Virus record (IMG/VR): IMGVR_UViG_3300017971_004103
Coordinates: 12,764 to 76,763 of that record
Direction: 5' to 3' (one strand)
DNA: 64,000 nt
DNA from: a virus
Positions 24,960 through 49,152 of this stretch are shown here, one piece after another; position 1 is the first letter of the stretch, and the number at the start of each line of letters is the position of its first letter. The position numbers and the translations under genes are program-made. The notes under the pieces were generated by a model, which saw only the letters and a list, made by a program, of their open reading frames with translations, was not told where the DNA came from and ran no database searches.

Positions 24960-26111
24960 ATGAAAAAGACAGTAATAATTGAATGGACTGAAGACCAACT
25001 CACACCATACGGTACAGTTAAAAAGGGTGGGATAAAGGAATTATCAGAAAGTGAAGCAAAACCCTATTTGGATAGGGGTTTATGTATTATCCCAGAATCG
25101 GTAATGGTTGAATATACAGGAATTCATGAATCCAAGAGAATAAAATTCAGAGGAGAAACATATGCCTTTATCAAGGGACATCCTCGCGTAGTTCCCGTAA
25201 TTCTTGCAAGAGAAGTCAGGCATTTCAAAGATTCATTTAAAATCAAACCTACAAAGATACCTTCAATTATATTTTCAAAAAGCAGCAAACCCCAAAAGCA
25301 TTTTATCATTAAATATAATGGAAATTTCGGCGATGTGTTAAGGGCAACCTGTGTGGCAGAATCCTTATACCATGAAGGGTATACCGTAAGTTTCGATATT
25401 AAGAAACATATGGAAGAGCTTTTGTATAATAATCCTTTTATCAGCCCACACAAAGAAAAGGCAGAAATTATTGACCTTGATAAAATCAGGGTTCATGCCC
25501 TTGAATCTGAAAATGTGTTGAGAACCAATACATGGCTAAAGGCAATTGGATTAGAAGACAGCCCCTTTAGAAAGCCCTCATATTTTCCCAGTAAAGAAGA
25601 AATTGAGAAGGCCAGAAGGATTGTAAAAGACGATAAGTTCACAATCGGCTTGGGTACTAGGGCAAGTGTTCCCGGTAAGACATGGCATGGGTTCGATGAT
25701 TTGAAAAAGAGATTAAAACCAAAGAACAGAGTCCTTGTCTTAGATAGAATGGTTAGTGGTGCACATCCGGGATTAATGGAATATCGATATTCACTTAGGC
25801 ACGTAGGGGCAATTATAAGCTTATGCAATCTCATTGTAACTAATGACAGCCTGATCCTACATCTTGCCGGTGCAATGGATGTCCCGTGTATTGGGTTATT
25901 TGGGAATACCAATGGAAAGGTAATGACTCAAAACTATCCATTTTGTGTACCGATTCAGGGGAAGTGTATCAAAAAATCTACCCTATCTAGCAATTCTGTC
26001 AAACCTTGTTGGTACGATGTTTGTCAGGAATACCACGATGGTGAATTACCATGTCTCGGTAACATAGAAGTTGATGAAGTTTTATCTGAAATCCGTAAAA
26101 TGAGGTGTTAA
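24960..26111 (+). CDS. GT9 (heptosyltransferase-like) glycosyltransferase with two extra N-terminal domains
   Basis: GNFGDVL, ELLYNNPFI, K.W, TNDSLILHLAGAMDVPCIGLFG.T and C-terminal C..PC...C...C...I.V.EV. Confidence 0.85.
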   Translation: MKKTVIIEWTEDQLTPYGTVKKGGIKELSESEAKPYLDRGLCIIPESVMVEYTGIHESKRIKFRGETYAFIKGHPRVVPVILAREVRHFKDSFKIKPTKIPSIIFSKSSKPQKHFIIKYNGNFGDVLRATCVAESLYHEGYTVSFDIKKHMEELLYNNPFISPHKEKAEIIDLDKIRVHALESENVLRTNTWLKAIGLEDSPFRKPSYFPSKEEIEKARRIVKDDKFTIGLGTRASVPGKTWHGFDDLKKRLKPKNRVLVLDRMVSGAHPGLMEYRYSLRHVGAIISLCNLIVTNDSLILHLAGAMDVPCIGLFGNTNGKVMTQNYPFCVPIQGKCIKKSTLSSNSVKPCWYDVCQEYHDGELPCLGNIEVDEVLSEIRKMRC

Positions 26112-31637: not shown

Positions 31638-31714
31638 GGGGACGTAATTCAATTTGGGGGAATACCAGTTTTGCACACTGGAGGTTGAGGGTTCGATTCC
31701 CTCCGTCTCCACCA
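31638..31714 (+). tRNA. tRNA-Ala(UGC)
   Basis: Acceptor GGGGACG/CGTCTCC with G3:U70, anticodon arm CCAGT-TTTGCAC-ACTGG, TTCGA loop, encoded CCA. Confidence 0.92.
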
Positions 31715-31718
31715 TTAT

Positions 31719-31794
31719 TGCGGGGTAGGCAAGTGGTTAAGCCGATGGTCTCATAAGCCATAATTCACGGGTTCGACTCCCGTCCCCGCTACCA
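31719..31794 (+). tRNA. tRNA-Met(CAU), initiator-like
   Basis: TGCGGGG/CCCCGCT with 1:72 mismatch, anticodon loop CTCATAA, GTTCGAC, encoded CCA. Confidence 0.88.
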
Positions 31795-31799
31795 TTTTA

Positions 31800-31873
31800 G
31801 GGGCGTTGGTGTAGCGGGAACATCCCAGACTCCAAACCTGGGGCCGAGGGTTCAAATCCTTCACGCCCTGCCA
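31800..31873 (+). tRNA. tRNA-Trp(CCA)
   Basis: GGGGCGT/ACGCCCT, anticodon loop CTCCAAA, G73, encoded CCA. Confidence 0.88.
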
Positions 31874-33493: not shown

Positions 33494-34185
33494 TGGCAAG
33501 AGTAGAACCATTCATATCAATAGTTACCAGGGCACACAATCGGCTTGAATATACAATCAGGTGTGTAAACGCCGTGCGGAATAATACCCTATATCCAAAC
33601 TACGAACACATTATTGTTTCTCAGGGATCAACTGACGGAACGGTTGAATGGTTGAACTGGATTAAAAAAGATATGCCTAATCAATCCCACTTTTCACGGG
33701 TACGGGCATTTCACCCCGGCAAAAACTTGGGTAGTTTGGGGGGAACATTATATGCCTTAGAAAAAATACAGACTGATCTTATAGTAGTTCTCGATAATGA
33801 TATGGAGGTGCCAAGGGATTGGCTTCGTAAAATGGAGCATGTTTGGCACACCCTTTATCCATCAACCAAGGGATTAATTGCGGTAATGGCAAGGCGAATC
33901 GGCGTTACAAAAACAAAGAAATGTAATTTTTATGCACATTATAATTATGGCAAAATGATACTTTCTGTTTGGACAACCTCTGACCCTGGCGCCTGTTTCA
34001 TGTTCAAGAGAAAATCCCTATTAGAACATAGAAATGAAATGACCGAGCACTTACATGTTGGGAGATATGGAAAAACTTTCAAAATACTAGAGGTTGAAGT
34101 TACTCATATGGAGGGTGCCAATTTAGGTGGGGAAGGAAGTTATTTGCAGAATTTAAAATATAAGCCGAATGGTAAAAAGGCATGA
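33472..34185 (+). CDS. GT2 family glycosyltransferase
   Basis: ISIV..A.NR, GSTDGT, LDND. Start probably ATG 33493. Confidence 0.8.
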   Translation: MVCGDKIMARVEPFISIVTRAHNRLEYTIRCVNAVRNNTLYPNYEHIIVSQGSTDGTVEWLNWIKKDMPNQSHFSRVRAFHPGKNLGSLGGTLYALEKIQTDLIVVLDNDMEVPRDWLRKMEHVWHTLYPSTKGLIAVMARRIGVTKTKKCNFYAHYNYGKMILSVWTTSDPGACFMFKRKSLLEHRNEMTEHLHVGRYGKTFKILEVEVTHMEGANLGGEGSYLQNLKYKPNGKKA

Positions 34186-35330
34186 GCGATCCCAGACCAG
34201 ATATGTATCTCTACTACAAACAGTTAATGGATCATTTAAATTGGGATGAAACTAAAATTTTTAATGGTGAATTAATTTATCCCCGTCAATTTGAGATTCA
34301 TTTACCGGCAAACCATAAGAGGCCATGCAATCTGGCATGTCCTGCATGTGCCGGAGCTTTTTTTGATAAATCACTAGGCCGATGGGAAATAGATTGTCTG
34401 GAATTACTCGATAAACTTCAGGGCAAAATTCCCTATCATATCTATGGCGGTGCATATACTGAGCCCCTACTAAATCCCTACTTTATTACCTTTATGGCCA
34501 TGACCAAAAAATGGGGTAATCATTTCGGCATCCACACTAACGGGACACACCTCGATGACCTTGAAACAAAATACGGCTTATTGACAGAGCTCAATAAGTT
34601 ATCTACTGATGATGTAGACTATTTATCAATTAGCATTGATGCTGGACTGCCCTGGAGTTGGGGAAAGACTAAGGGCACGAAAAAGCGGAAAATGTTTGGA
34701 GATATTTTAGAGGGAATAAGGCGGGCTTGTGAAATCAGAAAGAATGCCGGTGGTGGACATGCAATCAGATTGTGCTATTTGATTTCTTCCGCCAGTGGGA
34801 ATATTGAGGATTTTAATGCCATAGTATCAATTGCTAAAAGTTTGGGTGTAGATAGTCTCAGATTTAGCATACCTTTCGGGAGCTACAATCAGAGCTTTGA
34901 TAAAATCCGAGAATATAAGGCCAACACGGAAATCCCCGGCCATACCGTTTACGAGAAATTACTTGAGCCGATTGTATCAAAAAGCAAAGACGAAAGACCA
35001 TATATATTTTATACGGGGCCGGAATATACGGACATTGATAAGTATGACTTTACAGTTTGTGCCTACGGATATTATCAAGTCACTGTTTCCGCCGATGGTT
35101 ATTTTTATAAGTGTAGTACGACTGCAACTCCTACGGGCAAGCAATGCAGAATTGGAAAGATGTCCCCCGACCTAGAGAAATTTAAAAAGGTTATCATGAG
35201 AAACCAGAACCTAAAATGGGATTGCCGGAAAATGTGTTTTGACAAGGGCTTACGAGGAAACCGCATGGCATTAGAAATCAACACCATAGTTAATGAATTG
35301 CTTGAAGGCAAGTCTGAAAGTGCAACATAA
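34182..35330 (+). CDS. Radical SAM protein with SPASM/twitch-like domain
   Basis: CNLACPAC, EPLLNP, TNG, SID, C.......V.ADG..YKC. Confidence 0.85.
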   Translation: MSDPRPDMYLYYKQLMDHLNWDETKIFNGELIYPRQFEIHLPANHKRPCNLACPACAGAFFDKSLGRWEIDCLELLDKLQGKIPYHIYGGAYTEPLLNPYFITFMAMTKKWGNHFGIHTNGTHLDDLETKYGLLTELNKLSTDDVDYLSISIDAGLPWSWGKTKGTKKRKMFGDILEGIRRACEIRKNAGGGHAIRLCYLISSASGNIEDFNAIVSIAKSLGVDSLRFSIPFGSYNQSFDKIREYKANTEIPGHTVYEKLLEPIVSKSKDERPYIFYTGPEYTDIDKYDFTVCAYGYYQVTVSADGYFYKCSTTATPTGKQCRIGKMSPDLEKFKKVIMRNQNLKWDCRKMCFDKGLRGNRMALEINTIVNELLEGKSESAT

Positions 35331-36264
35331 ATATACGGGGACAATATGTGCACCATCCAGATACCGCAAGGAAGCATGCCTAACCGACCGCTATGCTCTT
35401 TTGCTAGAATCTCTTGCCAGGAAATTAAACTGGAAACTTCTGTTTGCAGACAATATCCGACGTCCCAAATTAGAGGGGAATACATTATTCCTATTTAAAA
35501 TCCCAATTAATGAGCGTAGGAGCCCTGTATTACCGGTTAATGAAATCCCTCCCCAAATGAAAGTCATTTGCTATATGACTGACCTACAGATTAATCAAAA
35601 GCAATATGGTTATCGGTATATCAAAAATTGTGATCGCATGTTTAAGCGGGCAGATATTATCCTTTGCCCGAACGTGCGATCCTTTTATCAGCGGTGGCAA
35701 AAGTATTTTTCCAAGCTAATCTTTTTCCCTCATTTTATTGCCCCGACAAGTAGATATAAACGATTGACTCAAATTAGTCACCAGACAAAGAAAGCTCTGC
35801 TTATTGGATTGATAGGTAAGAAAGAATATCCATTTAGGTTATTCTTGCGGCAATTGCAATCGGATTTAATTGAAGAAGTCCCGCACCCTGGCGATAGATT
35901 TGACGTTTATGAACGATTAGAGAGCGGTTATAAGATCAGAGATGCTTATGCCGAAACCATCAACCAATATGTGTGCGCTATTGCATCGAGTAGTCGATAT
36001 CATTATGTATTGGGAAAACATTTTGAAATCCCAGCATCCAATTCTATCTTATTGGCAAACGAGATTCCAGAACTAGCCAAGTGTGGATTTATGGCCAACG
36101 AACACTATATACCCATAAGCAAAAAGAATGCCCGTGAAATAATTGAAGATGTTACCCAAAATTCTTGGAAATATAGCCACATAAGAGAGAATGCAAGAAA
36201 TCTTGTTTTTAGTAGACATACCATTGAACATAGAATTGAACAAATTATTCAAATGGTAAGTTAA
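35293..36264 (+). CDS. CgeB/Glyco_trans_1_2-like glycosyltransferase
   Basis: YP.R, HPG, YA..IN, K.FEIPA...LL, GF....HYI, HT...R. Confidence 0.75.
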   Translation: MNCLKASLKVQHKYTGTICAPSRYRKEACLTDRYALLLESLARKLNWKLLFADNIRRPKLEGNTLFLFKIPINERRSPVLPVNEIPPQMKVICYMTDLQINQKQYGYRYIKNCDRMFKRADIILCPNVRSFYQRWQKYFSKLIFFPHFIAPTSRYKRLTQISHQTKKALLIGLIGKKEYPFRLFLRQLQSDLIEEVPHPGDRFDVYERLESGYKIRDAYAETINQYVCAIASSSRYHYVLGKHFEIPASNSILLANEIPELAKCGFMANEHYIPISKKNAREIIEDVTQNSWKYSHIRENARNLVFSRHTIEHRIEQIIQMVS

Positions 36265-37236
36265 ATGATCAAAGCATTTATTACTGGTGGGGCAGGATTT
36301 ATCGGTAGTCACCTAGTGGATGCCCTAATAGACAAATATGATATTACTGTTTATGACAATCTAAGTTCCGGGAATAAGGAATTTCTAAGACCGCACCTTG
36401 ACAAATCTAAAATCAAATTTATCTGCGGCGACTTGTTGGATAGAAAGAAACTACAGCAAAGCATTGCAGGTCATGACATTGTTTATCACTTAGCCGCCAA
36501 TTCTAATGTTAAGCCCGATATCCCGTCTACTGAACTTGATCTTACACAGGGAACAATAGCTACTTATAGTGTTATTGAATCAATGCGGCTAACCGGAATA
36601 AGGGACATTGTTTTTTCTTCTAGCTCTGTAGTTTATGGAAAGCCGGAAGTTTTCCCCACCCCAGAGAACTACGGGCCACTCTTACCTATTTCCCTGTATG
36701 GTGCAAGCAAGCTGGCATGTGAATCTCTAATAACTGCCTTTTGTCATATGTTTAATATGAGATGTTGGATTTTTAGGTTTGCTAATATTGTAGGTACACG
36801 ACAGACACATGGAATAATATTTGATTTCCTAAACAAGCTATTATCAAATCCCAGTGAACTTGAAATATTGGGAAATGGCAAACAAAAGAAATCATATCTA
36901 TTGGTTAGGGAATGTATTGAGGGAATAATTTTAGGTGTAGAAAAAGCACGGGATAAAATTAATGTATACAATCTTGGTAGTACCAGCCAGGTTGAGGTAG
37001 ACGAAATAGCCAATATTCTTGTCAATGAGAGAGGGTTAAGTACAATAAGATTCAGGCATACGGGCGGCGAAGGTGGCTGGCCCGGAGATGTTCCGGCGAT
37101 GCTACTTGATGTTACTAAAATAAACAGACTAGGGTGGAAGGCTCGATACAATTCTAAAGAGGCAATATGCCAAGCGATAAAAGATACCGTAAAATCCAAG
37201 CAGTCATCCTTGCGGGAGGGTTGGGTACTCGGCTAA
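36265..37236 (+). CDS. NAD-dependent nucleotide-sugar epimerase/dehydratase
   Basis: GGAGFIGSH, HLAA, SSSSVVYG, YGASK, GGWPGD. Confidence 0.92.
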   Translation: MIKAFITGGAGFIGSHLVDALIDKYDITVYDNLSSGNKEFLRPHLDKSKIKFICGDLLDRKKLQQSIAGHDIVYHLAANSNVKPDIPSTELDLTQGTIATYSVIESMRLTGIRDIVFSSSSVVYGKPEVFPTPENYGPLLPISLYGASKLACESLITAFCHMFNMRCWIFRFANIVGTRQTHGIIFDFLNKLLSNPSELEILGNGKQKKSYLLVRECIEGIILGVEKARDKINVYNLGSTSQVEVDEIANILVNERGLSTIRFRHTGGEGGWPGDVPAMLLDVTKINRLGWKARYNSKEAICQAIKDTVKSKQSSLREGWVLG

Positions 37237-37904
37237 GGCCTCTTACTCACGAAGTTCCTAAACCTATGATCATAATAAGAAATAAACCCTTTCTTTATTA
37301 TCAAATCATATATTTAAAACGATCCGGTATAAAAAATATTTTACTTTTAGTGGGTTATTTGGGCGATCAAATTAAAAATTATTTTGGCGATGGAAGTATA
37401 TTTGGATTGTCCATAAAATACTCGGAAGATAAACATTGTCTCGGTACAGGCGGTGCAATAAAACAAGCAGCGCAATTACTTGATGACAGCTTTTTTTTAA
37501 TTTATGGAGATTCATTTTTACCAATTGAATACGATAAAATATTTGAACGATTTATTGAAAATGGCAAAAGGGGTCTTTTAGTGATTTCCCATAATAGTGA
37601 CCCTTTTGCAAGGGGCAATATTACCATAGACAAAGATTCAAATATTATAAGATATGAAAAAGATGGTAGCAATAGTCGCTTGAAATACATTGATGCTGGT
37701 GTTGGTGTTCTTAGTAAGGATATTTTAACCTTTTTAGGACAACATGAGATTACTTCATTGGAAAAAGAAGGATTCCCCGAATTAATCAAACATAAAGAAT
37801 TGGCAGGGTTTATTACAGATGAGAGATTTTATGATATTGGGACAGTGGCGGGATTGAATAAGTTCAGGAGGCGGTTAAATGATTATTTCCCGTACACCAT
37901 GTAG
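37167..37904 (+). CDS. hddC: Heptose-1-phosphate nucleotidyltransferase (HddC-like)
   Basis: AVILAGGLGTRL.P....PKPM, LGTGGA, YDIGT; adjacent to hddA and gmhA. Confidence 0.75.
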   Translation: MPSDKRYRKIQAVILAGGLGTRLRPLTHEVPKPMIIIRNKPFLYYQIIYLKRSGIKNILLLVGYLGDQIKNYFGDGSIFGLSIKYSEDKHCLGTGGAIKQAAQLLDDSFFLIYGDSFLPIEYDKIFERFIENGKRGLLVISHNSDPFARGNITIDKDSNIIRYEKDGSNSRLKYIDAGVGVLSKDILTFLGQHEITSLEKEGFPELIKHKELAGFITDERFYDIGTVAGLNKFRRRLNDYFPYTM

Positions 37905-38847
37905 GGTTAGTTTTGCTGGGGGGGGTACAGATTTACGGGCATTTTATCAACATGAGCCTGGTGCAGTAGTGGGAACGGCAATTGATAAGTACATATACAT
38001 TACCATCAATAAACGATTTGATGAAACTATTCGGGCGGGTTATTCTAAAACAGAAATTGTGGATGATGTAGCACAGATTCAGCATCCCATCATTAGAGAA
38101 GCCATGAAGATTACCGGGGTTACTAGCGGGATAGAAATAACATCCATTGCAGACCTGCCCGCAGGAACGGGCATGGGAACATCGAGCAGCTTTGCTGTTG
38201 GACTTCTCAATGCGTTATATGCGTATAAAAATGAACACAAAACCGCAGAAGAACTTGCAAGGGATGCCGTTAAGATCGAAGTCAATATTTTAAAAGAGCC
38301 CATAGGAAAGCAGGATCAGTATTTTGCTGCGTATGGTGGGCTGAAGCATTTTGTGTTTAACTCAGATGAAACGGTATATGTGGAACCCATTATTTGTTAT
38401 GAAAAAACCAGGAAGACCCTCGGTGAAAATCTTTTGCTTTTTTATACTGGGATTACCAGAAATGCTAATTCTGTTCTAAAAAAACAAAAGGAGTCTACCG
38501 AGAAAAAAATGATATATCTGGGGCACATGAAAGAGATGGCACAAAACATTTCAAATGCCTTAGTTGAAAATGATTTAAGTTGTCTGGGAACATTTTTAAA
38601 TGATGGATGGCAAAGTAAAAAGCAGCTTGTAGATACTATTAGCAATCCGGTTATTGATTTCTATTATGAGAGAGGGATTGCGGCAGGTGCAAGCGGCGGT
38701 AAGCTACTCGGTGCAGGTAATGGTGGGTTTCTACTCTTTTATTGTACTCCACAGAATCAAGCAAAATTAAGGAATGTACTGGGATTGAGAGAGATTTCAT
38801 TTTCCCTTGAGCCGCAGGGAAGCAAGATTATTTATGTAGGTAATTAA
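37879..38847 (+). CDS. hddA: D-glycero-alpha-D-manno-heptose-7-phosphate kinase (GHMP family)
   Basis: TP.RVSFAGGGTD, PAGTGMGTSS, GKQDQY, GGKLLGAG.GG. Confidence 0.9.
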   Translation: MIISRTPCRVSFAGGGTDLRAFYQHEPGAVVGTAIDKYIYITINKRFDETIRAGYSKTEIVDDVAQIQHPIIREAMKITGVTSGIEITSIADLPAGTGMGTSSSFAVGLLNALYAYKNEHKTAEELARDAVKIEVNILKEPIGKQDQYFAAYGGLKHFVFNSDETVYVEPIICYEKTRKTLGENLLLFYTGITRNANSVLKKQKESTEKKMIYLGHMKEMAQNISNALVENDLSCLGTFLNDGWQSKKQLVDTISNPVIDFYYERGIAAGASGGKLLGAGNGGFLLFYCTPQNQAKLRNVLGLREISFSLEPQGSKIIYVGN

Positions 38848-38850
38848 AAA

Positions 38851-39423
38851 ATGGAAAAAAGCATTACAGCATATTTAGATAATCTCAAAAATTGCATCAA
38901 TGATATTTCAATAGAGAAGATTGAGAAGATCATCAATCTTATCTACCGGGCTTATAAAAACAACAGACAGATATTTATTATTGGAAATGGTGGAAGCGCT
39001 GCCACTGCAAGTCATTTTGCCTGTGATTTGGGTAAGGGAACAGCCTTCAGGGGTAGGCCAAGAATGAGGGTGATTTGTCTTAATGATAATATCCCACTCA
39101 TTACGGCCATATCAAATGATTGGGACTATGATCAAATCTTTAAAGAACAATTAATGAATCTTGTTAATTCGGGAGATATATTAATCAGCATTAGCTGTTC
39201 GGGCAACTCTAAAAACATATTGAATGCTGTTAATTATGTAAAATCAAAGGGGATAACTAATATCGGGTTTACGGGGTTCGGTGATGAGGGTGCATTAAAA
39301 CATATTGTTGATGAATACATATCTATCAATAGCACGAATTATGGCATTGTTGAAGATGCTCACCTTACACTGGTTCATGCAATTTCTCAGGCCATAAGAA
39401 AGAAAATTATTGATGAATGGTAA
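38851..39423 (+). CDS. gmhA: Sedoheptulose-7-phosphate isomerase (SIS domain)
   Basis: GNGGSAATASHF..DL, TAI.ND, IS.SGNS.N, VEDAH. Confidence 0.88.
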   Translation: MEKSITAYLDNLKNCINDISIEKIEKIINLIYRAYKNNRQIFIIGNGGSAATASHFACDLGKGTAFRGRPRMRVICLNDNIPLITAISNDWDYDQIFKEQLMNLVNSGDILISISCSGNSKNILNAVNYVKSKGITNIGFTGFGDEGALKHIVDEYISINSTNYGIVEDAHLTLVHAISQAIRKKIIDEW

Positions 39424-40957
39424 TTTACATTTCTTATTTATATATCCAGACATGGGAACGGACACTGCAAGTTTTTCACCGGCCATACAATTATTATCTG
39501 CAATTTTAAAGGATCGGGGAATAGATGTTAGCCTGGTTCATTTAAATAATCCCCACATGATACCAGATGACAAATCTTTCATATTGGCGGAAATTAAAAA
39601 ACACAATCCAAATGTCATAGGTTTTACAGCGACAAGTTTTCAATTCACAAGGGCAAATAAAATCGCAGGATATATCAAAAAAGAGTATCCCCGTAAAACC
39701 ATAATATTAGGGGGAACTCACGCCACTATTAAACCAGAAGATTTACGGGAATCTAATTTTGATGCTTTTTGTATTGGGGAGGGAGATGAGGCACTACCAG
39801 AATTCTTAGAAAAAATCGCTAGCAAACAGGATCATTCTAGTGTAAATAATTTCCATGTTAAATTAAAAGATGGAACTATTAAAAAAAATCCAATAAGGCC
39901 ATTCATTAAGGATTTAAATTTTTTACCCCATTGGGATATGAACATAATGGATATGCCAAAACTCATTAAAATTAGAAAGGGATGGCTCAGCATATCTTTT
40001 TCCAGGGGGTGTCCATATAGATGTGCATTTTGTATAAACCCACTACTTCTGAAATTGAACGTTCCCGAAGGGGAATGCATAGAAGGATATTGCAGAAAAA
40101 GAAGTGTTGATAACGTTATTAATGAATTAGTAATTATTATTGAAAAATTCAAGGGCAGTATTTCAGTAATCAACTTTGACGATGATTTGTTAATGCTGGA
40201 TAGGGCATGGATACTTGCATTTACCGAAAAATACATGACCAGGATTTTTCATCCCCATAACATTCAATATGTTTTTAATTGTAGGGCTAATACCATTGAC
40301 CATGAAATAGCCCAGGCGCTTTCACGAAGTGGATGTCTGGAGCTGAGAATTGGATTAGAGACGGGCGATGAAACATTACGGAATACGATATTAAACAAAC
40401 GGGTTTCCAACGATGAATTGAGGCGGGCATTTTCAATTGCCGACCAGCATGGAATTCATACCAATGCATTTGTAATGCTTGGTTTGCCGGGTGAATCACA
40501 ACCAACCATCAATGCAACACTTAAATTGATTGCCGACATTAGGCCGTTTCTTATTCGCATGACATTTCTTTATCCATACTACCGAACCCAAATTTATGAT
40601 TATTGTGTTAAGCACAATCTTATTAAACCGGAATACTATACATTATCGAATTCATTTACGGAGTCACCACTCCGATTTCATTTGCTGGACGACAATAATC
40701 TGCTTTCTAATCGATTATTCTTTCCTTGGTATGCTAATCTATTAATATGTGATGATCCATCAATTTATTTAGATAGAATCTGGCATTATGGAGCAATGAA
40801 ATTAAAACAACTACGACAAAAACAAACCTTTAAAAACATATTGAATGATGATAAAGCCTTGAGCCAGACCATGACTAAGAGGGAGATCCCCCACTACAAA
40901 TATTTCAGTGACAATAGAAACTATTTTCATCTCAAGGGTAAATATGGGTTCAACTAG
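39410..40957 (+). CDS. Cobalamin-dependent radical SAM protein (class B methyltransferase-like)
   Basis: GGTHAT, GEGD, SRGCPYRCAFC, DDD, G.ETG, MLGLPGE. Confidence 0.9.
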   Translation: MMNGNLHFLFIYPDMGTDTASFSPAIQLLSAILKDRGIDVSLVHLNNPHMIPDDKSFILAEIKKHNPNVIGFTATSFQFTRANKIAGYIKKEYPRKTIILGGTHATIKPEDLRESNFDAFCIGEGDEALPEFLEKIASKQDHSSVNNFHVKLKDGTIKKNPIRPFIKDLNFLPHWDMNIMDMPKLIKIRKGWLSISFSRGCPYRCAFCINPLLLKLNVPEGECIEGYCRKRSVDNVINELVIIIEKFKGSISVINFDDDLLMLDRAWILAFTEKYMTRIFHPHNIQYVFNCRANTIDHEIAQALSRSGCLELRIGLETGDETLRNTILNKRVSNDELRRAFSIADQHGIHTNAFVMLGLPGESQPTINATLKLIADIRPFLIRMTFLYPYYRTQIYDYCVKHNLIKPEYYTLSNSFTESPLRFHLLDDNNLLSNRLFFPWYANLLICDDPSIYLDRIWHYGAMKLKQLRQKQTFKNILNDDKALSQTMTKREIPHYKYFSDNRNYFHLKGKYGFN

Positions 40958-41936
40958 GGTATATGATGGAACGGTTTTTCTACCGGCAAGAATTTCCAAA
41001 GAACAACATCCATCTGATTGGTCAAGCCTTTTTGCCGAAACACTTGCCAAGACCTTTAGCTGGAAAATAGTTTGTTCTAACAAATTATTGCCAAGTGATA
41101 TAGAGGGAGAAATATTATTTACAATCAAAGCCCCCCAATTGGGTTATCCCAATGTACTGACTACAATCGACAAGATAAGCAAAGATATAAAAATAGTGAA
41201 TTACCTACAGGATATTAGGGGTGACGATCAAAATTATTTGCGGTATATGCATCAAATGCTAGAAAGGTCTGATCTTATTCTCTATTCCTATAAAGAATCT
41301 TTTGAAAATGGTTGGCCTGAATATATCAAAAAAGGAGTTTACTTTCCCGTATTTATTATTCCATCAGAACGATTTTTATCGTTAGAACAAGACATAAATG
41401 CCCAGGAGAAGAAATGCCTTGTTATAGGCTGCACTGACAGAAAATGGTATCCCCTTAGACATAAGGCAACTATGCTATCGCGGGATTTATTCAATGTCAT
41501 TCCCCACCCAGGCTATGATATTTCCTTTAATCAATTGGCCGAAAGAAAGAATAGGAAATTTGTAGATGCCATTGAGTATGCTGAAATGATGAATAAGCAT
41601 ATTTGTTGCGTGACCTCTACGCTCAATAATGAATGTTCTAATCGTACCAATCATTGGGTAGTTCTTAAATTGTTTGAAATCATGGCTGCCGGATCAATTT
41701 TGATAAGTGATTGGTGTGAGGAAATGAATGGGCTGGGATTCATTGATGGAATTAATTTCATAGATGCTGATGCCAATAACTTAGAGGAAAAGGTTGGGGA
41801 TATTGTAGGAAACCCAGCGAAATATGAGAAAATCAGTAAAGAGGGAAGGGCCTTCGTTAAAAACAATCATACAATAGAAAGGCGAATAGAATCTCTCAAA
41901 AAAATATTGAGGAATATTGGATATAGAAACTCATAA
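40908..41936 (+). CDS. CgeB/Glyco_trans_1_2-like glycosyltransferase, paralogue of 35293..36264
   Basis: WYPLR, PHPGY, KLFEIMAAGS, GF.DG..F, NHT...R. Confidence 0.75.
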   Translation: MTIETIFISRVNMGSTRVYDGTVFLPARISKEQHPSDWSSLFAETLAKTFSWKIVCSNKLLPSDIEGEILFTIKAPQLGYPNVLTTIDKISKDIKIVNYLQDIRGDDQNYLRYMHQMLERSDLILYSYKESFENGWPEYIKKGVYFPVFIIPSERFLSLEQDINAQEKKCLVIGCTDRKWYPLRHKATMLSRDLFNVIPHPGYDISFNQLAERKNRKFVDAIEYAEMMNKHICCVTSTLNNECSNRTNHWVVLKLFEIMAAGSILISDWCEEMNGLGFIDGINFIDADANNLEEKVGDIVGNPAKYEKISKEGRAFVKNNHTIERRIESLKKILRNIGYRNS

Positions 41937-43212
41937 TTGCATTCTCGGTGGGGGCCTGGCAGGATTAAGCACAGGTCTTTTCCTGGAAGGCAAGACTACA
42001 ATAATAGAAAGGGAGGCAGCACTCGGCGGTTTATGCAAAAGCATCCAGAAAGATGGTTTTACATTTGATTGTGTGGGTGGCCATATTCTCTTTTCGCGAA
42101 ATAAAGATATTTTAAAATTAATCATAGACATACTTGAGCCCAATTATGAAACGAAATATAGAAATGTTAAGATATATTATAGGGGTAAATACCTTAAATA
42201 CCCCTTTGAAAATGGACTGTCGGGCTTACCATTAAAAGAAAACATAGAATGTCTATACCATTATCTATTTAATGATTCAAAAACCCCCACCAACTTCAAA
42301 GAATGGCTTTATCATATATTCGGCAGGGGAATTGCTGAAAAATATTTGGTTCCCTACAATGAGAAAATATGGAAAACAGATTTGTCGAAAATGGATTTAC
42401 AGTGGGTTAGTAGAATTCCCAAGCCCCCCACCCTAGACATAATTAAATCATCCATTGGCATTTCTACTGAAGGATATAAACATCAATTATATTTTGTTTA
42501 TCCCAAAACCGGGGGCATTCAATCATTAATTGATTCTATGAAAAAGAAACTTCCAGCAAATGTAGATACTATTAAAAACTTCCCGGTCACAAAAATTTAT
42601 CGGCAGAATAATCAATGGGTTGTTTCCGATGGAAAGCGCAAGGTCAAGTGTAATGTTTTGATTTCTACAATTCCCATATTTGATCTTATTGGAGCGCTTG
42701 ATAATGTACCAGGTAAAATCAAAAATGCCTTGAATGGGCTAAGATATAATTCCTTAATTACCGTACTACTTGGTTTGAACTGTAAGAATCAATCTAATTT
42801 CTTAAGTGTATATTTCCCGAATAAGCATGATATTTATCATAGAATTTGTTTCATGGAAAACTTTAGCAAGCATAATGTTCCACCCCGCAAATCGTCACTT
42901 ATGGCAGAAATAACGATAAGACCCGAAGGTGGGAATAAGAGTGACGATAAAATCATTAATGATGTTATTAATGACTTAGATGCTAAAAAAATTATAAACA
43001 AAAAAGATGTTTGTTATGGTAGGGTTATTCGCACGAAATATGCCTATGTAGTATATGATGAGGGTTATCAAAAAAACATTACCATGCTGAGGGATTACAT
43101 TAATAAACTTGGTATATATCTTTGTGGCAGATTTGCCGAGTTCAAATATCTGAATATGGATGGTTGCATTGAGCACGGATTAAAACTTGCAAATAAGTTA
43201 AATCGAATATGA
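41917..43212 (+). CDS. FAD-dependent oxidoreductase (UDP-galactopyranose mutase/HemY-like)
   Basis: ILGGGLAGLS, GGLC.S...DGF.FD..GGH, PYNEKIW, GRFAEFKYLNMD. Confidence 0.8.
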   Translation: MDIETHNCILGGGLAGLSTGLFLEGKTTIIEREAALGGLCKSIQKDGFTFDCVGGHILFSRNKDILKLIIDILEPNYETKYRNVKIYYRGKYLKYPFENGLSGLPLKENIECLYHYLFNDSKTPTNFKEWLYHIFGRGIAEKYLVPYNEKIWKTDLSKMDLQWVSRIPKPPTLDIIKSSIGISTEGYKHQLYFVYPKTGGIQSLIDSMKKKLPANVDTIKNFPVTKIYRQNNQWVVSDGKRKVKCNVLISTIPIFDLIGALDNVPGKIKNALNGLRYNSLITVLLGLNCKNQSNFLSVYFPNKHDIYHRICFMENFSKHNVPPRKSSLMAEITIRPEGGNKSDDKIINDVINDLDAKKIINKKDVCYGRVIRTKYAYVVYDEGYQKNITMLRDYINKLGIYLCGRFAEFKYLNMDGCIEHGLKLANKLNRI

Positions 43213-44066
43213 CAAATATAGTATTAATAGGACATGGCTACTGGGGCAAAAAGCTGGAGAATTACATTCCGGCTTTTTTTAATTTAAGGCATGTCTGTAA
43301 TTTAAAAACAGATATGTCAAAAGTATGGGACGATGTTGAGGCTGTGATAATAGCCACGCCGATTGAAACACATTATAGTATTGCGATGGGTGCGCTCTTA
43401 CGCGGGAAGCATGTCTTTTGCGAAAAACCCATAACCCTGAAAATAGGTGAGGCTTTAAGATTACGACATACTGCGAATGAAAGAAACCTAAAAATAGGGG
43501 TTGAGTATACATTTCAGTTTTCCCAGGGCATCCAGCACATGATCCGCGAACTTCCCAGGATCGGGAAAATACAGCACATCGAAATGGTATCAAGGCACCT
43601 TGGCCGGTTCATGAATCATAATGTCTATTGGTTACTGGCCTCTCACTATATGGCGGTGCTTGATCGGATAGTTGATTTGGATTTGTTGAATTGGGAAGAT
43701 ATTGACTGCGTTAAAAATGAAAAAATTGTTACCACGGGGTTATTGGATTTTTGGAATAATGATCTAACCGGAACGATAAATGTAAGTATCAACTATCCGG
43801 GTAAGGATAATAATATCACCATTTATGGTGAAGTGGGTACTATTAAATTCAATTCGATTTCTGGGAAACTTGAGATTGCCGAATATGATAAAATCCCAAT
43901 GGCGTTACCCCCCGAACTTACTCAATGCCATGATGAATATTATACCGATGAGAAACACAACTTGAGATATGCCATGCAGTATTTCAAAGATTTGATTGAC
44001 GGGAAAGTCGAATCGAATATTGATACGGCAATTAAGATTACTCGGATACTAGGAGAAATTGATTGA
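43209..44066 (+). CDS. Gfo/Idh/MocA oxidoreductase
   Basis: IG.GYWG, IATP..TH, GKHVFCEKP. Confidence 0.88.
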   Translation: MTNIVLIGHGYWGKKLENYIPAFFNLRHVCNLKTDMSKVWDDVEAVIIATPIETHYSIAMGALLRGKHVFCEKPITLKIGEALRLRHTANERNLKIGVEYTFQFSQGIQHMIRELPRIGKIQHIEMVSRHLGRFMNHNVYWLLASHYMAVLDRIVDLDLLNWEDIDCVKNEKIVTTGLLDFWNNDLTGTINVSINYPGKDNNITIYGEVGTIKFNSISGKLEIAEYDKIPMALPPELTQCHDEYYTDEKHNLRYAMQYFKDLIDGKVESNIDTAIKITRILGEID

Positions 44067-44989
44067 AAATAGCGGTAATGAAGGACAGAAAGTCCTGGAT
44101 TGTTGATAAGCTCTCAGACACCATTAAAAAATATGCCCCTGCCGACGTCGGCTTCACGGATTTTGAGGTAGATATCGATATTAAGGGATTATTAAAACTA
44201 GCCAAAACCCATGACATCATCTATTCAGCATTTTGGCAGCCATTCATGAGAAACGATCTGGTTTTAGATGAGCGATTTCCGGGTGATAAAACGATTATTC
44301 AGGTATGGCACTTAATTGATGGACACGACAAAAATCAGCTTAAACTCTGCCATCCCAATGTGAAACATATTGTGTATCCCTGTAGAACTACCCAAGCATC
44401 ATTAAGTTTGTTGGGCGTTAAAGCATCTCTCCACAAGTGCAATATGTCGGTAGATATCGATATCTACAAACAAGTTGTACCACATAAACGCTGTGAAAAA
44501 CTTAAGATCGGGAGTTTTGGTCAAAATCTACCACGAAAATGCTTTGATGTATTATGTAGCACACTTGATCAGATGGAAAATGTGGAGCTCATCACAACTT
44601 TAGGCCCTGAGCATAAAAAAGTAAGAAGATATGGGAGGGTATCAGATGAAGAAATGGTCGAACTATTCTCAGAAATTGATTGCTATGTATCGACTTCAGA
44701 CTGCGAGGGTGGGCCGGTGGGTGTGCTTGAGGCTATGGGATGCGGAGTGCCTGTTGTTATTACTCCTACTGGTTTTGCTGGTGATATTGTCAGGAATGGA
44801 ATAAACGGATTCATTATTCCATTTAATGATATTAGTGCATTAATAAAAAGGCTGGAATGGATACGGGAAAATCCGGGGATGTCGGGGATTATCGGGGAAA
44901 GCGGTCGAATGACTGTTGAGAAATACACACCCCAGGCAATGAGCGAACAGTACATAAATATGTTCGGGAGGATTTTCGATTCACAATAA
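44063..44989 (+). CDS. GT4 glycosyltransferase
   Basis: D.YV.TS..EGGPV.VLEAM.CG.PVV.T..G...D.V..G.NG. Confidence 0.88.
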   Translation: MKIAVMKDRKSWIVDKLSDTIKKYAPADVGFTDFEVDIDIKGLLKLAKTHDIIYSAFWQPFMRNDLVLDERFPGDKTIIQVWHLIDGHDKNQLKLCHPNVKHIVYPCRTTQASLSLLGVKASLHKCNMSVDIDIYKQVVPHKRCEKLKIGSFGQNLPRKCFDVLCSTLDQMENVELITTLGPEHKKVRRYGRVSDEEMVELFSEIDCYVSTSDCEGGPVGVLEAMGCGVPVVITPTGFAGDIVRNGINGFIIPFNDISALIKRLEWIRENPGMSGIIGESGRMTVEKYTPQAMSEQYINMFGRIFDSQ

Positions 44990-45104
44990 CTGAAACACGA
45001 CCAGAAGTTTCACCGTTTCTGATACATTTAATAGAAGATAAATTTAAGGAGGTATTCATGTTTATTAAGGGAGGTGGTCACATGGCATGAGGAGGTGATG
45101 TTGT

Positions 45105-45278
45105 GTGGCTACCAAAAAGAGTACTGGTAAGAAGGGCAATAAAAAACATGGTCGTATGAAGAAAAAGCCCTCGCATATCCGTTATAATGCCGAGAATCGC
45201 AGAGAGAAAAACAAACTGCGAAGAATGGCGAGAATAAAAAGAAAGATGGAGAGAAAAGCGAGAAGGCGAAATGCTTAA
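45105..45278 (+). CDS. 57-aa Arg/Lys-rich microprotein
   Basis: GGAGGTGA RBS plus GTG; MATKKSTGKKGNKKHGRMKKKPSHIRYNAENRREKNKLRRMARIKRKMERKARRRNA. Confidence 0.6.
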   Translation: MATKKSTGKKGNKKHGRMKKKPSHIRYNAENRREKNKLRRMARIKRKMERKARRRNA

Positions 45279-45344
45279 TAAGCAGTAGTGGGTGGGGGAA
45301 TTTCTCCTCACCTTATTTATGCAGATAAGACCCTTAAAATTCTG

Positions 45345-45378
45345 AAAAAACCCCTCGATTCAATCGGGGGGTTTTTCT
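45345..45378. terminator. Bidirectional terminator-like hairpin
   Basis: AAAAAACCCCTCGATT / AATCGGGGGGTTTTT. Confidence 0.65.
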
Positions 45379-45421
45379 GTAGGATCAACGATAACTCCTT
45401 TATTGGATAGATAGGTCAAAT

Positions 45422-46411
45422 ATGAGAAAAAAAGCCCTTATAACGGGAATTACGGGAATGGACGGATCAAACCTCGCCGATTTGCTTTTAGGCAAAAATT
45501 ATGAGGTACACGGAATAATTAGGCGATCATCGACCTCAAATACATGGCGGATTGATCATATCCTGGACAGAATAACATTACATGAGGGTGATGTAATGGA
45601 TGGGGCTTCCCTGGTTAAGATAATGGAAAAATGTATGCCTGATGAAATATACCACCTTGCAGCCATGAGTTATGTCGGGGCATCATGGAAAACCCCGATA
45701 TACACATCTGAGTGTACTGGATTAGGCACACTTAAAGTGCTTGAGGCAATGAGACAGGTGTGTGAGGGGGCTAGGTTTTATCATGCAGGATCGTCCGAGC
45801 AATTTGGGAAAGCACAAGAAACCCCACAAAAAGAAACCACCCCATTTTATCCCCGTAGCCCCTATGGGGTGGCTAAATGTTTTGGCTTTGATATGACCCG
45901 GAACTACAGAGAGTCATACGATATGTTTTGTTGTAGCGGTATACTTTTTAACCACGAAGACCAAAGGCGCGGCATTGAATTCGTTACCCGAAAGATCACC
46001 GATGGGGTAGCACAGATAAAATTGGGGTTGCTGGATAAGCTAAAACTCGGCAATCTTGATGCAAAAAGGGATTGGGGTAGTTCGATTGATTATGTAGTTG
46101 CTATGTGGATGATGCTACAAAACGAAAACCCAATTGATTATGTAGTGGCAACTGGCGAGACACATTCTGTCCGTGAATGGTGTGAGGCTGCTTTTTCTCA
46201 TGTAAATTTGGACTACAAAGAATTTGTTGAGCTTGACCCCAGATTTATAAGGCCAGCCGAAGTCGATATTTTAATCGGCGATGCAAGCAAAATTAAAAGG
46301 GAACTAGGCTGGAAGCCAAAAATAGGATTTAAGGAATTGATTCAGCAAATGGTAGATGCCGACATGAAAAGAGTTTGGGATAAGGGGAAATATGATGTTA
46401 AGACTATATGA
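45422..46411 (+). CDS. gmd: GDP-mannose (or GDP-heptose) 4,6-dehydratase
   Basis: [60 protein letters not shown]. Confidence 0.92.
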
Positions 46412-46607: not shown

Positions 46608-46632
46608 AAAACCCCGCCTTGTGAGCGGGGCT
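46606..46632 (-). terminator. Terminator of the minus-strand operon
   Basis: CCCCGC / GCGGGG stem with an A-tract on the left (U-tract on the minus strand). Confidence 0.7.
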
Positions 46633-46655
46633 AGCTTGACTTATTTGCTTGTCCT

Positions 46656-47021
46656 TCAGTTTCTTTGACAATTAAAATATTTTTGGCCAGCACGTCCCAT
46701 ATCATCTATATAGATGTGCATAGCCTTGCCGTCGTACTCAGCTATGATTTTGGTGGTGTCGTGGTCATCCATTGCATCTTTCGCAGTTAATTCCCGGCCA
46801 TCAATCTGGTCGCCCTGACTATTGCCTCCAGAGTCGTACCATTGTGAGGCATCTCTATACTCCCAAGTGCCATCAACAATGCCACGTAGATCATCTACGC
46901 CATTAGCATTGTCGGCATATTCTATGCCCGAGATTACGGCTACAATATTATCAAGTGCATCATAACACTCGATTTGCAGTCCTCCACCATTGTTTTCTTT
47001 AACCTGCGCACTTGTTATCAT
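46656..47021 (-). CDS. Acidic hypothetical protein
   Basis: AAGGAG RBS; ENNGGGL motif; Asp/Glu-rich. Confidence 0.7.
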   Translation of the reverse strand: MITSAQVKENNGGGLQIECYDALDNIVAVISGIEYADNANGVDDLRGIVDGTWEYRDASQWYDSGGNSQGDQIDGRELTAKDAMDDHDTTKIIAEYDGKAMHIYIDDMGRAGQKYFNCQRN

Positions 47022-47053
47022 AATTTCTCCTTTCCCTCTAGTGAGGGGTTAGG

Positions 47054-47218
47054 TTATTTATCCTTGTAAAATATTCCAAAGTCTGGGTCGGTTGTGACTG
47101 TAAAAATATCACCATGCTCATCTACTATATCGTCAATAATTGTTGCAAGGTCGGCATCATCGTCAACATCTTCAGTCCACGCATACCCACTATGGGCTGT
47201 AACGGTTATTGTAATCAT
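47054..47218 (-). CDS. 54-aa highly acidic microprotein
   Basis: Own translation: MITITVTAHSGYAWTEDVDDDADLATIIDDIVDEHGDIFTVTTDPDFGIFYKDK; AAGGAG RBS. Confidence 0.6.
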   Translation of the reverse strand: MITITVTAHSGYAWTEDVDDDADLATIIDDIVDEHGDIFTVTTDPDFGIFYKDK

Positions 47219-47245
47219 AATTCATTTCTCCTTTCCCTCTGGGGG

Positions 47246-47437
47246 TTAAAGTTTTTTAAGTTCTTTTTTGGGTCTACCAGTTTTTCTAATTCTAACCATT
47301 TTTAGAAATTTGACATTGATTGCCCAATCCCTACCGAATTTTATTGCGGGCAAGCGGCCAGACAAAATTAATTGTCTGACCCTTGACTGATTTATCTTTA
47401 GGATTTTGGCTGCTTGAGTGGTGTTTATGATTTTCAT
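47246..47437 (-). CDS. Excisionase-type HTH (HTH_17) DNA-binding protein
   Basis: T.QAA..L......VRQLI..GRLPA.K.GR.W.I; GRPKK tail; GAGGA RBS. Confidence 0.85.
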   Translation of the reverse strand: MKIINTTQAAKILKINQSRVRQLILSGRLPAIKFGRDWAINVKFLKMVRIRKTGRPKKELKKL

Positions 47438-47757
47438 GATGTCCTCCTCAAAATTCCGATTTCGCAATTTTTCAAGACAAAATCGGGGGTGAGCTTGCCC
47501 TTGAGGGTGGGGTCAGACATTCGGCAAGTGAGGCGGAAAATTAGAGCTTCATCACCGGATGCCATTTTCACCATTCTTCGATTAGTGGGGATGAGGATTC
47601 CGGTTATTGCCGAGATGGCAGAAGCCGTCTCAGCATAACCGATTGTGCTGTCGAATGTACCAGCACTCAACCATTTTTTGGCCGTCTCAACATCCACTAG
47701 AAAATAATCGTATTTTCCCGGAGATGTGATAACGGCACTATTTAATATATATCTCAT
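47434..47757 (-). CDS. DUF1874/STIV-B116 family protein (AcrIII-1 ring-nuclease-like)
   Basis: YILNS, S.IG[Y]..TA, NR......GDEAL.F.L..R match the family, but the GH histidine is Tyr. Confidence 0.75.
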   Translation of the reverse strand: MRYILNSAVITSPGKYDYFLVDVETAKKWLSAGTFDSTIGYAETASAISAITGILIPTNRRMVKMASGDEALIFRLTCRMSDPTLKGKLTPDFVLKNCEIGILRRTS

Positions 47758-48221
47758 ACTTCGACGGCCTCCTCGCCGTCTAGGAGTACATCATTACCCA
47801 AAGGGATAAATCCATCGGGAGTAAATTTATCATAACGCACCCCATGTCTGCCCTTATAGGTATCATGAGCCAGAATAGATTCACAAGTGACAATCCCGAT
47901 ATTGGATTCAGAATTGCCATAACCCCCACAACTAGAGGCCATGAAAATGGGTTCGGGGGATACGTTTACACCATAACCACCGCCCATGAAAACACCCACC
48001 ACTCCCTCCTTTTTGGGTGGGTTGATGAAAATATAGGAGTGATTGCCCTTTTCGTAATAGGCAACCTCTCCCTCAGTTTGTGTCCACCCCTTATCATTGT
48101 AAGGGATGAACTCACCTTGAAAATCTTTTCCTGATACGATTACCAGGTTGCGCCTCGTGGCGCCATTACTCTTTTCTATTTTTCCCCCTTCATAGGGGAA
48201 ATTAAAATATATTTTACTCAT
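47754..48221 (-). CDS. Hypothetical protein
   Basis: AAGGAG RBS before ATG 48221; ATGA overlap with the next gene. Confidence 0.6.
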   Translation of the reverse strand: MSKIYFNFPYEGGKIEKSNGATRRNLVIVSGKDFQGEFIPYNDKGWTQTEGEVAYYEKGNHSYIFINPPKKEGVVGVFMGGGYGVNVSPEPIFMASSCGGYGNSESNIGIVTCESILAHDTYKGRHGVRYDKFTPDGFIPLGNDVLLDGEEAVEV

Positions 48222-48225
48222 ACAT

Positions 48226-48489
48226 TTACTCCTTTCTCCCGTGCTCATTTTGAGCGCAGGAATGATTCTCAGAAAACAGCCCGCTTGTTTCCCGAGATAA
48301 AATTTCGGCTCTGTGCTCGTACACCCAGCGGGCGTGTTTGCAAACTCTCCCATTACGGGCAGAAGGACACGAACACTTTAGGGACTTAAGTCCCACAAAA
48401 TAAAATTGTCCTGGAAGGGACTCAGACTCAATTGAGACTGTAACCCCATTTTCCAATAGTTCCCAAGATGATGGTACGAATGGTCTCAT
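48226..48489 (-). CDS. SWIM zinc-finger protein
   Basis: CSCP.......CKH; GGAGG RBS. Confidence 0.75.
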   Translation of the reverse strand: MRPFVPSSWELLENGVTVSIESESLPGQFYFVGLKSLKCSCPSARNGRVCKHARWVYEHRAEILSRETSGLFSENHSCAQNEHGRKE

Positions 48490-48743
48490 TTTCCCTCCTT
48501 TTCTAAAAAGGTTAATCTTGCCCGTTTCTCCCACCTACCCAGGCGGGGAAAAGGAACATCTATATCCAATATGGCAGCCCTTCGCACATGCTGTACTTGC
48601 TGCCAAATTCTTAGAAATGTTTCTTCTTCCTTAACCGAGAGAGAAGAAACGATTTTCCCCTTACAACGTATTGCTCCGTCTTTAAGAGAGAAAGTTAAAT
48701 ATCGCCCATCAGGGCAGAAAATTTTTCTGGTGAAAGGTCTCAT
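48486..48743 (-). CDS. Hypothetical protein
   Basis: GGAGG RBS; translationally coupled to its neighbours. Confidence 0.55.
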   Translation of the reverse strand: MRPFTRKIFCPDGRYLTFSLKDGAIRCKGKIVSSLSVKEEETFLRIWQQVQHVRRAAILDIDVPFPRLGRWEKRARLTFLEKEGK

Positions 48744-49093
48744 TAGTCTCCCTCCCTCACCCATTGCCTCATTTCAAAGCGATGGGTACAAGAGTCTACC
48801 AAAGTAGATTCAAAACTAGTTTCTCGCAAGAGTTTTTTCAATCTCTTGCGGGCACGGCTTGGAGTCCGGCCAGCAGCGAGTAAAATACGACGCTCCGGCC
48901 AAATTTCCGACTCATGAAAAGAGCCGTTCCAACCGTTGTCAAACTCTGCCCATTCCGGCAGGTCTCGGTTATCGACTGGTGCAGGAGTATCAATACCCCT
49001 GATAAATGCTACCCACCTATGACTGCGGGTAGCGAAGGAACAATCAAGAAAAAAATGATGCTCCCTAAATTTTTTCAATCTCAATATTTTCAT
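48743..49093 (-). CDS. Hypothetical protein, first gene of the minus-strand operon
   Basis: AAGGGAG RBS before ATG 49093. Confidence 0.6.
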   Translation of the reverse strand: MKILRLKKFREHHFFLDCSFATRSHRWVAFIRGIDTPAPVDNRDLPEWAEFDNGWNGSFHESEIWPERRILLAAGRTPSRARKRLKKLLRETSFESTLVDSCTHRFEMRQWVREGD

Positions 49094-49123
49094 TGGGTCT
49101 CCCTTATAATTAATCTTGATTAT

Positions 49124-49152
49124 AATATAACCCATACGTTATAGTTTGTCAA
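49124..49152 (-). promoter_or_regulatory. Strong sigma70 promoter with overlapping palindromic operator
   Basis: TTGACA-17 nt-TATATT on the minus strand, A/T tract upstream; TATAAC-N6-GTTATA at 49126-49143. Confidence 0.8.

Follow-up and report, generated by a model that had tools for sequence, protein, structure and literature searches.

The 64 kb of DNA analysed here (the window, out of a 76.8-kb IMG/VR record with an estimated completeness of 91%) carries a gene for a DUF1874 protein in which tyrosine takes the place of the catalytic histidine of the AcrIII-1 ring nucleases. Judged from aligned relatives, this tyrosine is the hallmark of a large, conserved branch of the DUF1874 family and not a one-off mutation. 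It is likely that proteins of this Tyr type act on cyclic tetra-adenylate (cA4) signalling, and that the gene in the window phage is an anti-type-III-CRISPR gene, because the conserved ligand pocket, the viral and mobile distribution and the recruitment beside CARF proteins all mirror the His-type family. Chances are about even that the protein, as an AcrIII-1/Crn2 family member of the Tyr/Lys type, neutralises cA4 signalling and that it would do so still by cleavage of the ring.

The Gene and Its Surroundings in the Phage

The window belongs to a tailed phage and encodes a large terminase (TerL), an SPP1-type portal, a capsid protein and beta-helix fibre proteins. The same DNA is contained in sediment and marine metagenome runs from two studies, and among the listed runs no RNA dataset was found to carry the stretch. 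The DUF1874 gene is one of eight small minus-strand genes that form a block (46656-49135) in the otherwise plus-strand phage (Table 1). Its stop codon overlaps the ATG of a downstream HTH gene (TCATGA; overlap 47434-47437), and the two genes are predicted to be translationally coupled within this separate minus-strand cassette. The HTH protein matches excisionase and DNA-binding families in PHROG. The ORFan upstream has no Pfam, NCBIfam or PHROG match, and its sole match among 5.8 billion proteins is itself.

Table 1. Positions of the features discussed; coordinates are those of the window, except in the last two lines, which refer to locus L109.
Feature	Position	Strand	Remarks
Sigma-70-like promoter, TTGACA-17-TATATT (11/12)	49124..49152	(-)	Head of cassette; consensus match only
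155-aa ORFan, upstream	47754..48221	(-)	Its stop overlaps the DUF1874 ATG (ATGA)
DUF1874 gene, Tyr type	47434..47757	(-)	107 aa; from ORF, Pfam and fold
Codons Tyr41-Ala42-Glu43 (TAT GCT GAG)	47629..47637	(-)	From sequence and alignments; Tyr41 codon TAT at 47637-47635
Codon Lys86, lid loop DPTLKGK	47500..47502	(-)	Aligned to Glu88 of SIRV1 gp29 (hhalign)
HTH gene, downstream	47246..47437	(-)	63 aa from Met11 of the listed ORF; PF12728 HTH_17, E 4.6e-8
Intrinsic-terminator-like hairpin and T run	46610..46632	(-)	End of cassette; consensus match only
CRISPR arrays of L109	3-201 and 3999-4645
cas6 of L109	5070-5870

The cassette (46610-49152, minus strand) interrupts plus-strand late and glycosylation genes. 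Other genes of the cassette encode a SWIM zinc-finger protein (48226-48534) and two small, very acidic proteins (at 47054-47218 and at 46656-47021); these last two could be further anti-defence genes. Elsewhere the phage has a large sugar-modification cluster (8967-10565, 24960-26111 and 34182-46411) with GT2 and GT9 glycosyltransferases, an amine-oxidase/FAD protein, two radical-SAM proteins, one of them with a B12-binding domain, and a GDP-mannose 4,6-dehydratase-like gene with 72% DNA identity to a gene of Synechococcus phage S-SCSM1. Three tRNA genes (Ala-TGC, Met-CAT and Trp-CCA) are clustered at 31638-31873.

Family Membership and Fold

The 107-aa protein matches PF08960 (STIV_B116-like, i.e., DUF1874) with an E-value of 7.6e-15 and 55.3 bits against a Pfam cut-off of 26. 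It also matches PHROG 5063, a family without assigned function, and no NCBIfam model matches it. By sequence the best solved relatives found with phmmer are AFV3-109 (2j6b, E 6e-10) and STIV B116 (2j85), and the profile of the clade also matches Csx1-Crn2 (8y7f, 8y6z and 8y7g) and SIRV1 gp29 (2x4i and 6scf). An AlphaFold2 model built from 66 homologues has a mean pLDDT of 89.7 and predicts the AcrIII-1 fold, a five-stranded sheet with three helices, over the whole protein. When Foldseek was run with this model the top 17 matches were all AcrIII-1/Crn2 entries (TM 0.74-0.85). Similarly, VIA-align gave Z-scores of 14.2-14.9 over 96-106 residues to 8y7f, 8y7g, 2j6b, 2j85, 2x4i and 6scf, with Crn2 as the best structural match (Z 14.9), whereas the next unrelated chain reached only Z 2.9. 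On the predicted structure the protein is thus a member of the DUF1874/PF08960 structural family, as the first-pass annotation had proposed. It is not classed as a standard AcrIII-1, since it lacks two published defining features, the catalytic His and its Glu partner. Csx16 was considered as an identity for the protein and rejected, as the PF08960 match is strong, the Z-scores are 14-15 and Csx16 resembles DUF1874 only distantly.

Changed and Retained Residues of the Active Site

Residues were mapped with hhalign to SIRV1 gp29 and by HMMER profile alignment to Csx1-Crn2 (Table 2). The motif STIGYAETA, noticed at first pass, occupies residues 37-45, and its Tyr falls on the His of IGH in both phmmer alignments. 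Altogether four alignments (to AFV3-109, STIV B116, Csx1-Crn2 and SIRV1 gp29) put Tyr41 on the catalytic His, in line with the earlier reading that the His had been replaced. That reading had also held that an NR pair and a downstream Arg were kept; the pair is N59-R60, and two residues, R75 and R79, answer to the latter. The retained residues are those that contact cA4 or are required for activity in gp29 and Crn2 (10.1101/778746; PMC11317161).

Table 2. Active-site residues of the window protein and their counterparts in SIRV1 gp29 and Csx1-Crn2.
Window protein	SIRV1 gp29	Crn2	State
N6	N8 (via the Crn2 alignment; the hhalign match begins at gp29 residue 21)	N451	Retained
S7		S452	Retained
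Y41	H47	H495	Changed
E43	S49		Changed
T44	T50		Retained
N59-R60	N65-R66	R514	Retained
V63	I69	I517	Retained
R75	Q81	K529	Retained
L76		L530	Retained
R79	R85		Retained
K86-G87-K88	E88-G89-K90	E536 (hhalign-based)	Changed, after a four-residue insertion

In the known enzymes Glu88/E536 stabilises the imidazole of the catalytic His (PMC11317161). The PEG loop motif of the His-type enzymes is absent from the window protein, and the lid here reads DPxLKG and is four residues longer. The hhalign alignment puts Lys86 at E88, whereas the ungapped HMMER alignment puts Asp82, not Lys86, at E536; the equivalence of Lys86 and Glu88 crosses the 4-residue indel and concerns a stretch (residues 81-90) modelled at a pLDDT of about 65, the lowest confidence in the protein.

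In SIRV1 gp29 the His47Ala change lowers activity more than 2500-fold (10.1101/778746), and in Crn2 His495Ala abolishes cleavage with nanomolar cA4 binding kept, the KD of the His-to-Ala mutants being 32-62 nM (PMC11317161). As such changes cripple the activity of gp29 and Crn2, the loss of His could mean that the protein binds cA4 without cleaving it.

Conservation and Co-variation in the Tyr-Type Branch

Seventy close homologues (44-79% identity) were retrieved from a collection of 5.8 billion proteins, and all 70 have Tyr in a GYxET motif. When 1.84 billion cluster representatives were searched exhaustively, 635 matches were obtained at E <= 1e-3, of which the best 150 were pooled with the 70 close homologues to give 216 distinct proteins. 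The catalytic column of this pool (best 150 of the 635 matches plus the 70) holds Tyr in 195, His in 11, Phe in 7 and other residues in 3, and among the best 150 of the 635 matches His-types appear solely from about E 1e-16 downward. JGI metagenome contigs were also scanned and yielded 210 relatives; 77 of these had a callable gene, with GY.(E/Q)T in 72/77 and GF.ST in 5/77. The residues N6, S7, A8, V9, G14, Y18, Y41, E43, A71, R75, K86, E99, G101 and L103 are invariant in the 66-sequence alignment of the clade. A sequencing error and a recent inactivating mutation were both considered as sources of the Tyr and rejected, as it is conserved across the clade.

Among 50,697 deposited phage genomes no Tyr-type relative was found. 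The 11 records that matched belong to archaeal viruses and to Hydrogenobaculum phage 1, with 28-35% identity; ARV1 and HP1, which were inspected, both have the His. Plasmids searched with tblastn gave a single relative, which is also His-type. Scanning viral sequences with the single protein sequence gave nothing, and a scan with the profile gave 13 viral loci. The Tyr-type proteins found all come from metagenome-derived sources (contigs, uncultured-virus records and MAGs). This may be why the catalytic His is called "absolutely conserved" (10.1101/778746) or "highly conserved" (PMC8284326) in the literature. A full-text literature search on DUF1874, AcrIII-1 or Crn2 together with tyrosine or sponge returned no description of such a clade, and within the literature searched the Tyr-type branch is apparently undescribed.

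The Tyr does not vary alone. In the pool of 216 (best 150 of the 635 matches plus the 70), the 195 Tyr-types have Lys86 in 178, Gly87 in 159 and Glu43 in 147. The 11 His-types of the same pool read RLPEG at the loop, and only one has Lys at position 86. Lys86 is found in 3/7 and Glu43 in 2/7 of its Phe-variants; such a relaxation is expected if both residues work with the Tyr hydroxyl. Fisher tests gave raw values of 1.8e-7 for Tyr vs Lys86 and 3e-4 for Tyr vs Glu43 with shared ancestry ignored, and an independent-pairs test for Tyr/Lys found just one independent pair on supported branches. The family tree is poorly resolved (3/139 branches well supported), so that neither monophyly of the Tyr-types nor the direction of the change between His and Tyr can be read from it. 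In this tree the classic His-types, including HP1 and ARV1, cluster, and two other His-types, P0166 and P0179, nest among the Tyr-types. P0166 has a hybrid lid loop, RLPDDPSLK, and the two proteins may be intermediates of a switch between His and Tyr. The codons for His (CAY) and Tyr (TAY) are one transition apart. Estimates of dN/dS were saturated in 4/5 comparisons, and the sole estimate obtained was 0.14. Taken from sequence comparison, the coordinated changes at Tyr41, Glu43 and Lys86 are more in keeping with an active site that has been rebuilt than with one that is dead.

Genomic Context of the Tyr-Type Genes

In total 63 loci were inspected. The window shares no neighbour of the gene with the 13 viral or the 9 genomic loci, which argues that the gene moves on its own. 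The usual neighbours are genes of phages and conjugative elements, i.e., terminase, integrase, DNA methylases, SSB, ERF, RusA, TraU, ArdC and reverse transcriptase. An AAA ATPase of about 480-520 aa (PF00004) adjoins the Tyr-type gene in seven distinct mobile-element loci, directly upstream in most. Loci with this ATPase are L016, L046-L048, L005, L036, L039, L067, L085 and L051/L052; some of them also have RusA, TraU and conserved proteins of 118 and 192 aa without assigned function. It is conceivable that the AAA ATPase and the Tyr-type DUF1874 protein make up a recurring module. The ESM Atlas clusters nearest to the window protein are 52-67% viral. Cellular carriers are found among Gammaproteobacteria, Planctomycetota, Desulfobacterales, Bacteroidota, Nitrospira, Latescibacterota, Methanoperedens and Nitrososphaeria. 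Among the cellular genomes that were sampled, members of the clade are rare: a Tyr-type gene was present in 1/401 genomes from the phylum of one carrier, a Desulfobacterales MAG (G002), and the one was G002 itself.

Approximately 3 of the 63 loci inspected are CRISPR-associated (L019, L109 and L098). The CRISPR-linked genes represent at least two independent lineages. Both have the complete Tyr-Glu-Lys set, and both lie directly upstream of CARF proteins. In the first, L019 (identical with L070), which comes from a Nitrospira japonica MAG, the Tyr-type gene is divergent from cas1-cas2 and is followed after 5 bases by a CARF(NE0113)-sigma54 ATPase, then by a Card1-type CARF nuclease and then by another CARF protein. 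Card1, here identified by its Pfam domains, is a family of cA4-activated nucleases. In the second (L109, with L098), the Tyr-type gene and a CARF(NE0113)-sigma54-HTH protein are bracketed by two CRISPR arrays whose repeat is 37 nt long; the CARF-fused sigma54 activator next to a putative ring nuclease suggests that cA4 controls a transcriptional response. Six MAGs with a Tyr-type gene were searched for Cas10, which was present above the model cut-off in three (Csm1 in two and Cmr2 in one). The first-pass annotation had taken the protein for a cyclic-oligonucleotide sponge or an altered enzyme and had seen in it a sign of type III CRISPR or related signalling in the host. Its link to cyclic oligoadenylates is supported by relatives in CRISPR/CARF operons, while the Tyr that it treated as a peculiarity of a single protein is instead clade-wide.

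A His-type Crn2 occupies a type III-B locus of Vibrio aerogenes pLMG19650, where it comes first, ahead of RAMP, cas10 and cmr3 and in divergent orientation to cas1-cas2. This gene (L116, 72658-72975 of the record, annotated as "YddF family protein") is on a plasmid of a cultured strain and would offer a tractable experimental comparator. Its neighbours include a 604-aa protein without Pfam match and a Cas1 of 1003 aa that may carry an RT fusion.

Among ten longer representatives there was one fusion only, P0136 (226 aa), in which a ribbon-helix-helix (CopG) domain is joined to a Tyr-type DUF1874 domain in a manner that resembles an Acr-Aca fusion. A search for longer, fused forms gave 3 proteins, none with an extra domain. 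No Tyr-type domain fused to Csx1 or another effector was found, which is weak evidence.

Possible Modes of Action

The following course of events would fit the phage gene. The window protein would form the same homodimer as the known enzymes, and be expressed with the HTH regulator from its own minus-strand cassette. The homodimer would bind cA4 made by the type III CRISPR system of the host, and the signal would be neutralised early in infection, with the result that CARF-domain effectors are not activated. The most likely action is ring cleavage through in-line attack by the 2'-OH, in which the leaving group would take its proton from Tyr41 instead of His, Lys86 having lowered the pKa of the Tyr.

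There are several reasons to favour cleavage. First, the replacement by Tyr/Lys is coordinated and is conserved as strictly as the original His/Glu pair. Second, Lys and Glu relax once Tyr is replaced by Phe. Third, Tyr and Lys have roles in other metal-independent RNA transesterifications, as in the tRNA-splicing endonuclease and some Cas6 proteins, where they serve cleavage to a 2',3'-cyclic phosphate. Fourth, given the amount of cyclic oligoadenylate (cOA) that type III systems make, sponging is not considered an effective strategy for viruses (PMC13148439), and in a mostly viral clade turnover would be expected to beat sequestration of such an output. On the other hand, Phe-variants exist, so the hydroxyl is not indispensable everywhere, and with a single independent pair the co-variation of Tyr and Lys is not independent of phylogeny. 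A free Tyr is moreover a poor general acid, which counts against cleavage.

Alternatively, the protein may be a cA4 sponge that has kept the dimeric pocket and the lid and sequesters one cA4 per dimer without cleavage; it would blunt type III signalling in phages and buffer the signal in CRISPR loci. The catalytic His and its Glu partner are both missing while the cA4-binding residues are conserved, a combination reminiscent of the His-to-Ala mutants of Crn2 with their nanomolar affinity, and Phe occurs at the Tyr position in 7 of the 216 proteins (best 150 of the 635 matches plus the 70). Phages commonly carry sponges for other cyclic-nucleotide signals, and Csx15, which is CRISPR-associated, acts largely as a cA4 sponge (PMC13148439). 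However, the sponge-like Csx15 is not found in phages (PMC13148439), whereas the Tyr-type clade is mainly viral, and the argument from the large amounts of cOA made by type III systems applies here as well. Nor does a pure binder have an obvious need for an invariant Tyr-Glu-Lys set that relaxes jointly when Tyr gives way to Phe. A sponge of this kind is therefore considered doubtful. It is tempting to speculate, if only tentatively, that the Tyr-types, which dominate the metagenomic sequence neighbourhood of the protein, never cleave cA4 and form a sponge family derived from ring nucleases that serves as anti-CRISPRs in phages and as borrowed buffers in hosts, or that they are directed at another cyclic nucleotide.

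A change of specificity, in which the rebuilt site and the longer lid fit cA3, cA6 or CBASS-type cyclic oligonucleotides that are then degraded or bound, appears unlikely. The lid does differ from that of the His-types in both length and sequence (DPxLKG vs PEG), Ser49 has become Glu, and most members are found in mobile elements without CRISPR context. Yet the residues that contact the phosphates and bases of cA4 in gp29 and Crn2 are retained, and in one CRISPR-linked case the gene shares its operon with Card1. A role that has nothing to do with cyclic nucleotides, either DNA binding and regulation or a part in mobile-element replication together with the AAA ATPase, is very improbable: homologues in phage records are annotated as "DNA binding protein", as are homologues of B116 and AFV3-109 in older annotations, an ATPase of about 490 aa adjoins the gene in 7 distinct element loci and most loci have no conserved CRISPR link, but the residues of the ligand pocket are conserved, CARF operons inside CRISPR loci repeatedly begin with the gene and the DNA-binding annotations are older than the discovery of ring-nuclease activity (10.1101/778746).

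Cleavage by a Tyr/Lys site and sequestration would both be informative about cOA turnover, the former as a second catalytic solution on the same fold and the latter as a transition from enzyme to sponge. AcrIII-1 is the model of an anti-CRISPR that destroys a second messenger, and its mechanism is taught as relying on an absolutely conserved His. Here a large and diverse branch, present in phages and in CRISPR-CARF operons, lacks this His and has a Tyr/Lys(/Glu) set that is just as conserved. A census of ring nucleases or anti-CRISPRs in which the His motif is demanded, whether based on HMMs or on motifs, would miss the Tyr-types.

Comparison with Known Systems

The sponges Acb2, Tad1, Tad2 and sponge-like Csx15 have no sequence or fold relationship to the Tyr-type protein with its AcrIII-1 fold. 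They would be analogous to it if the Tyr-types bind without cleaving, and the window protein, too, is small and phage-borne. The arrangement of the cassette is similar to that of acr-aca operons, as a small gene of anti-defence type is followed by a coupled HTH gene, with promoter-like and terminator-like sites of its own. The HTH protein, a candidate Aca-like regulator, is however of the HTH_17/excisionase type, and other Tyr-type loci have no such neighbour.

The closest likeness is to the ring nucleases themselves. AcrIII-1 (SIRV1 gp29, PDB 6SCF/2X4I; STIV B116; AFV3-109) is, like the window protein, a small stand-alone protein carried by viruses, with the same PF08960 domain and the same predicted fold (Z 14.2-14.7). 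The Asn-Ser motif at the N-terminus, Thr50, Asn65-Arg66 and the strand and loop Arg residues that hold cA4 are all kept. The differences are His47 to Tyr, Glu88 to Lys, Ser49 to Glu, a lid extended by four residues and an identity of 14-29%. In comparison with Crn2 (Marinitoga Csx1-Crn2, PDB 8Y6Z/8Y7F/8Y7G; Vibrio aerogenes) H495 is replaced by Tyr, and E536 by Lys86 (hhalign) or Asp82 (HMMER), while N451, S452, R514, K529 and L530 correspond to N6, S7, R60, R75 and L76. Tyr-type relatives of the window protein fill the same slot as Crn2 does, first in a CARF/effector operon that is divergent from cas1-cas2.
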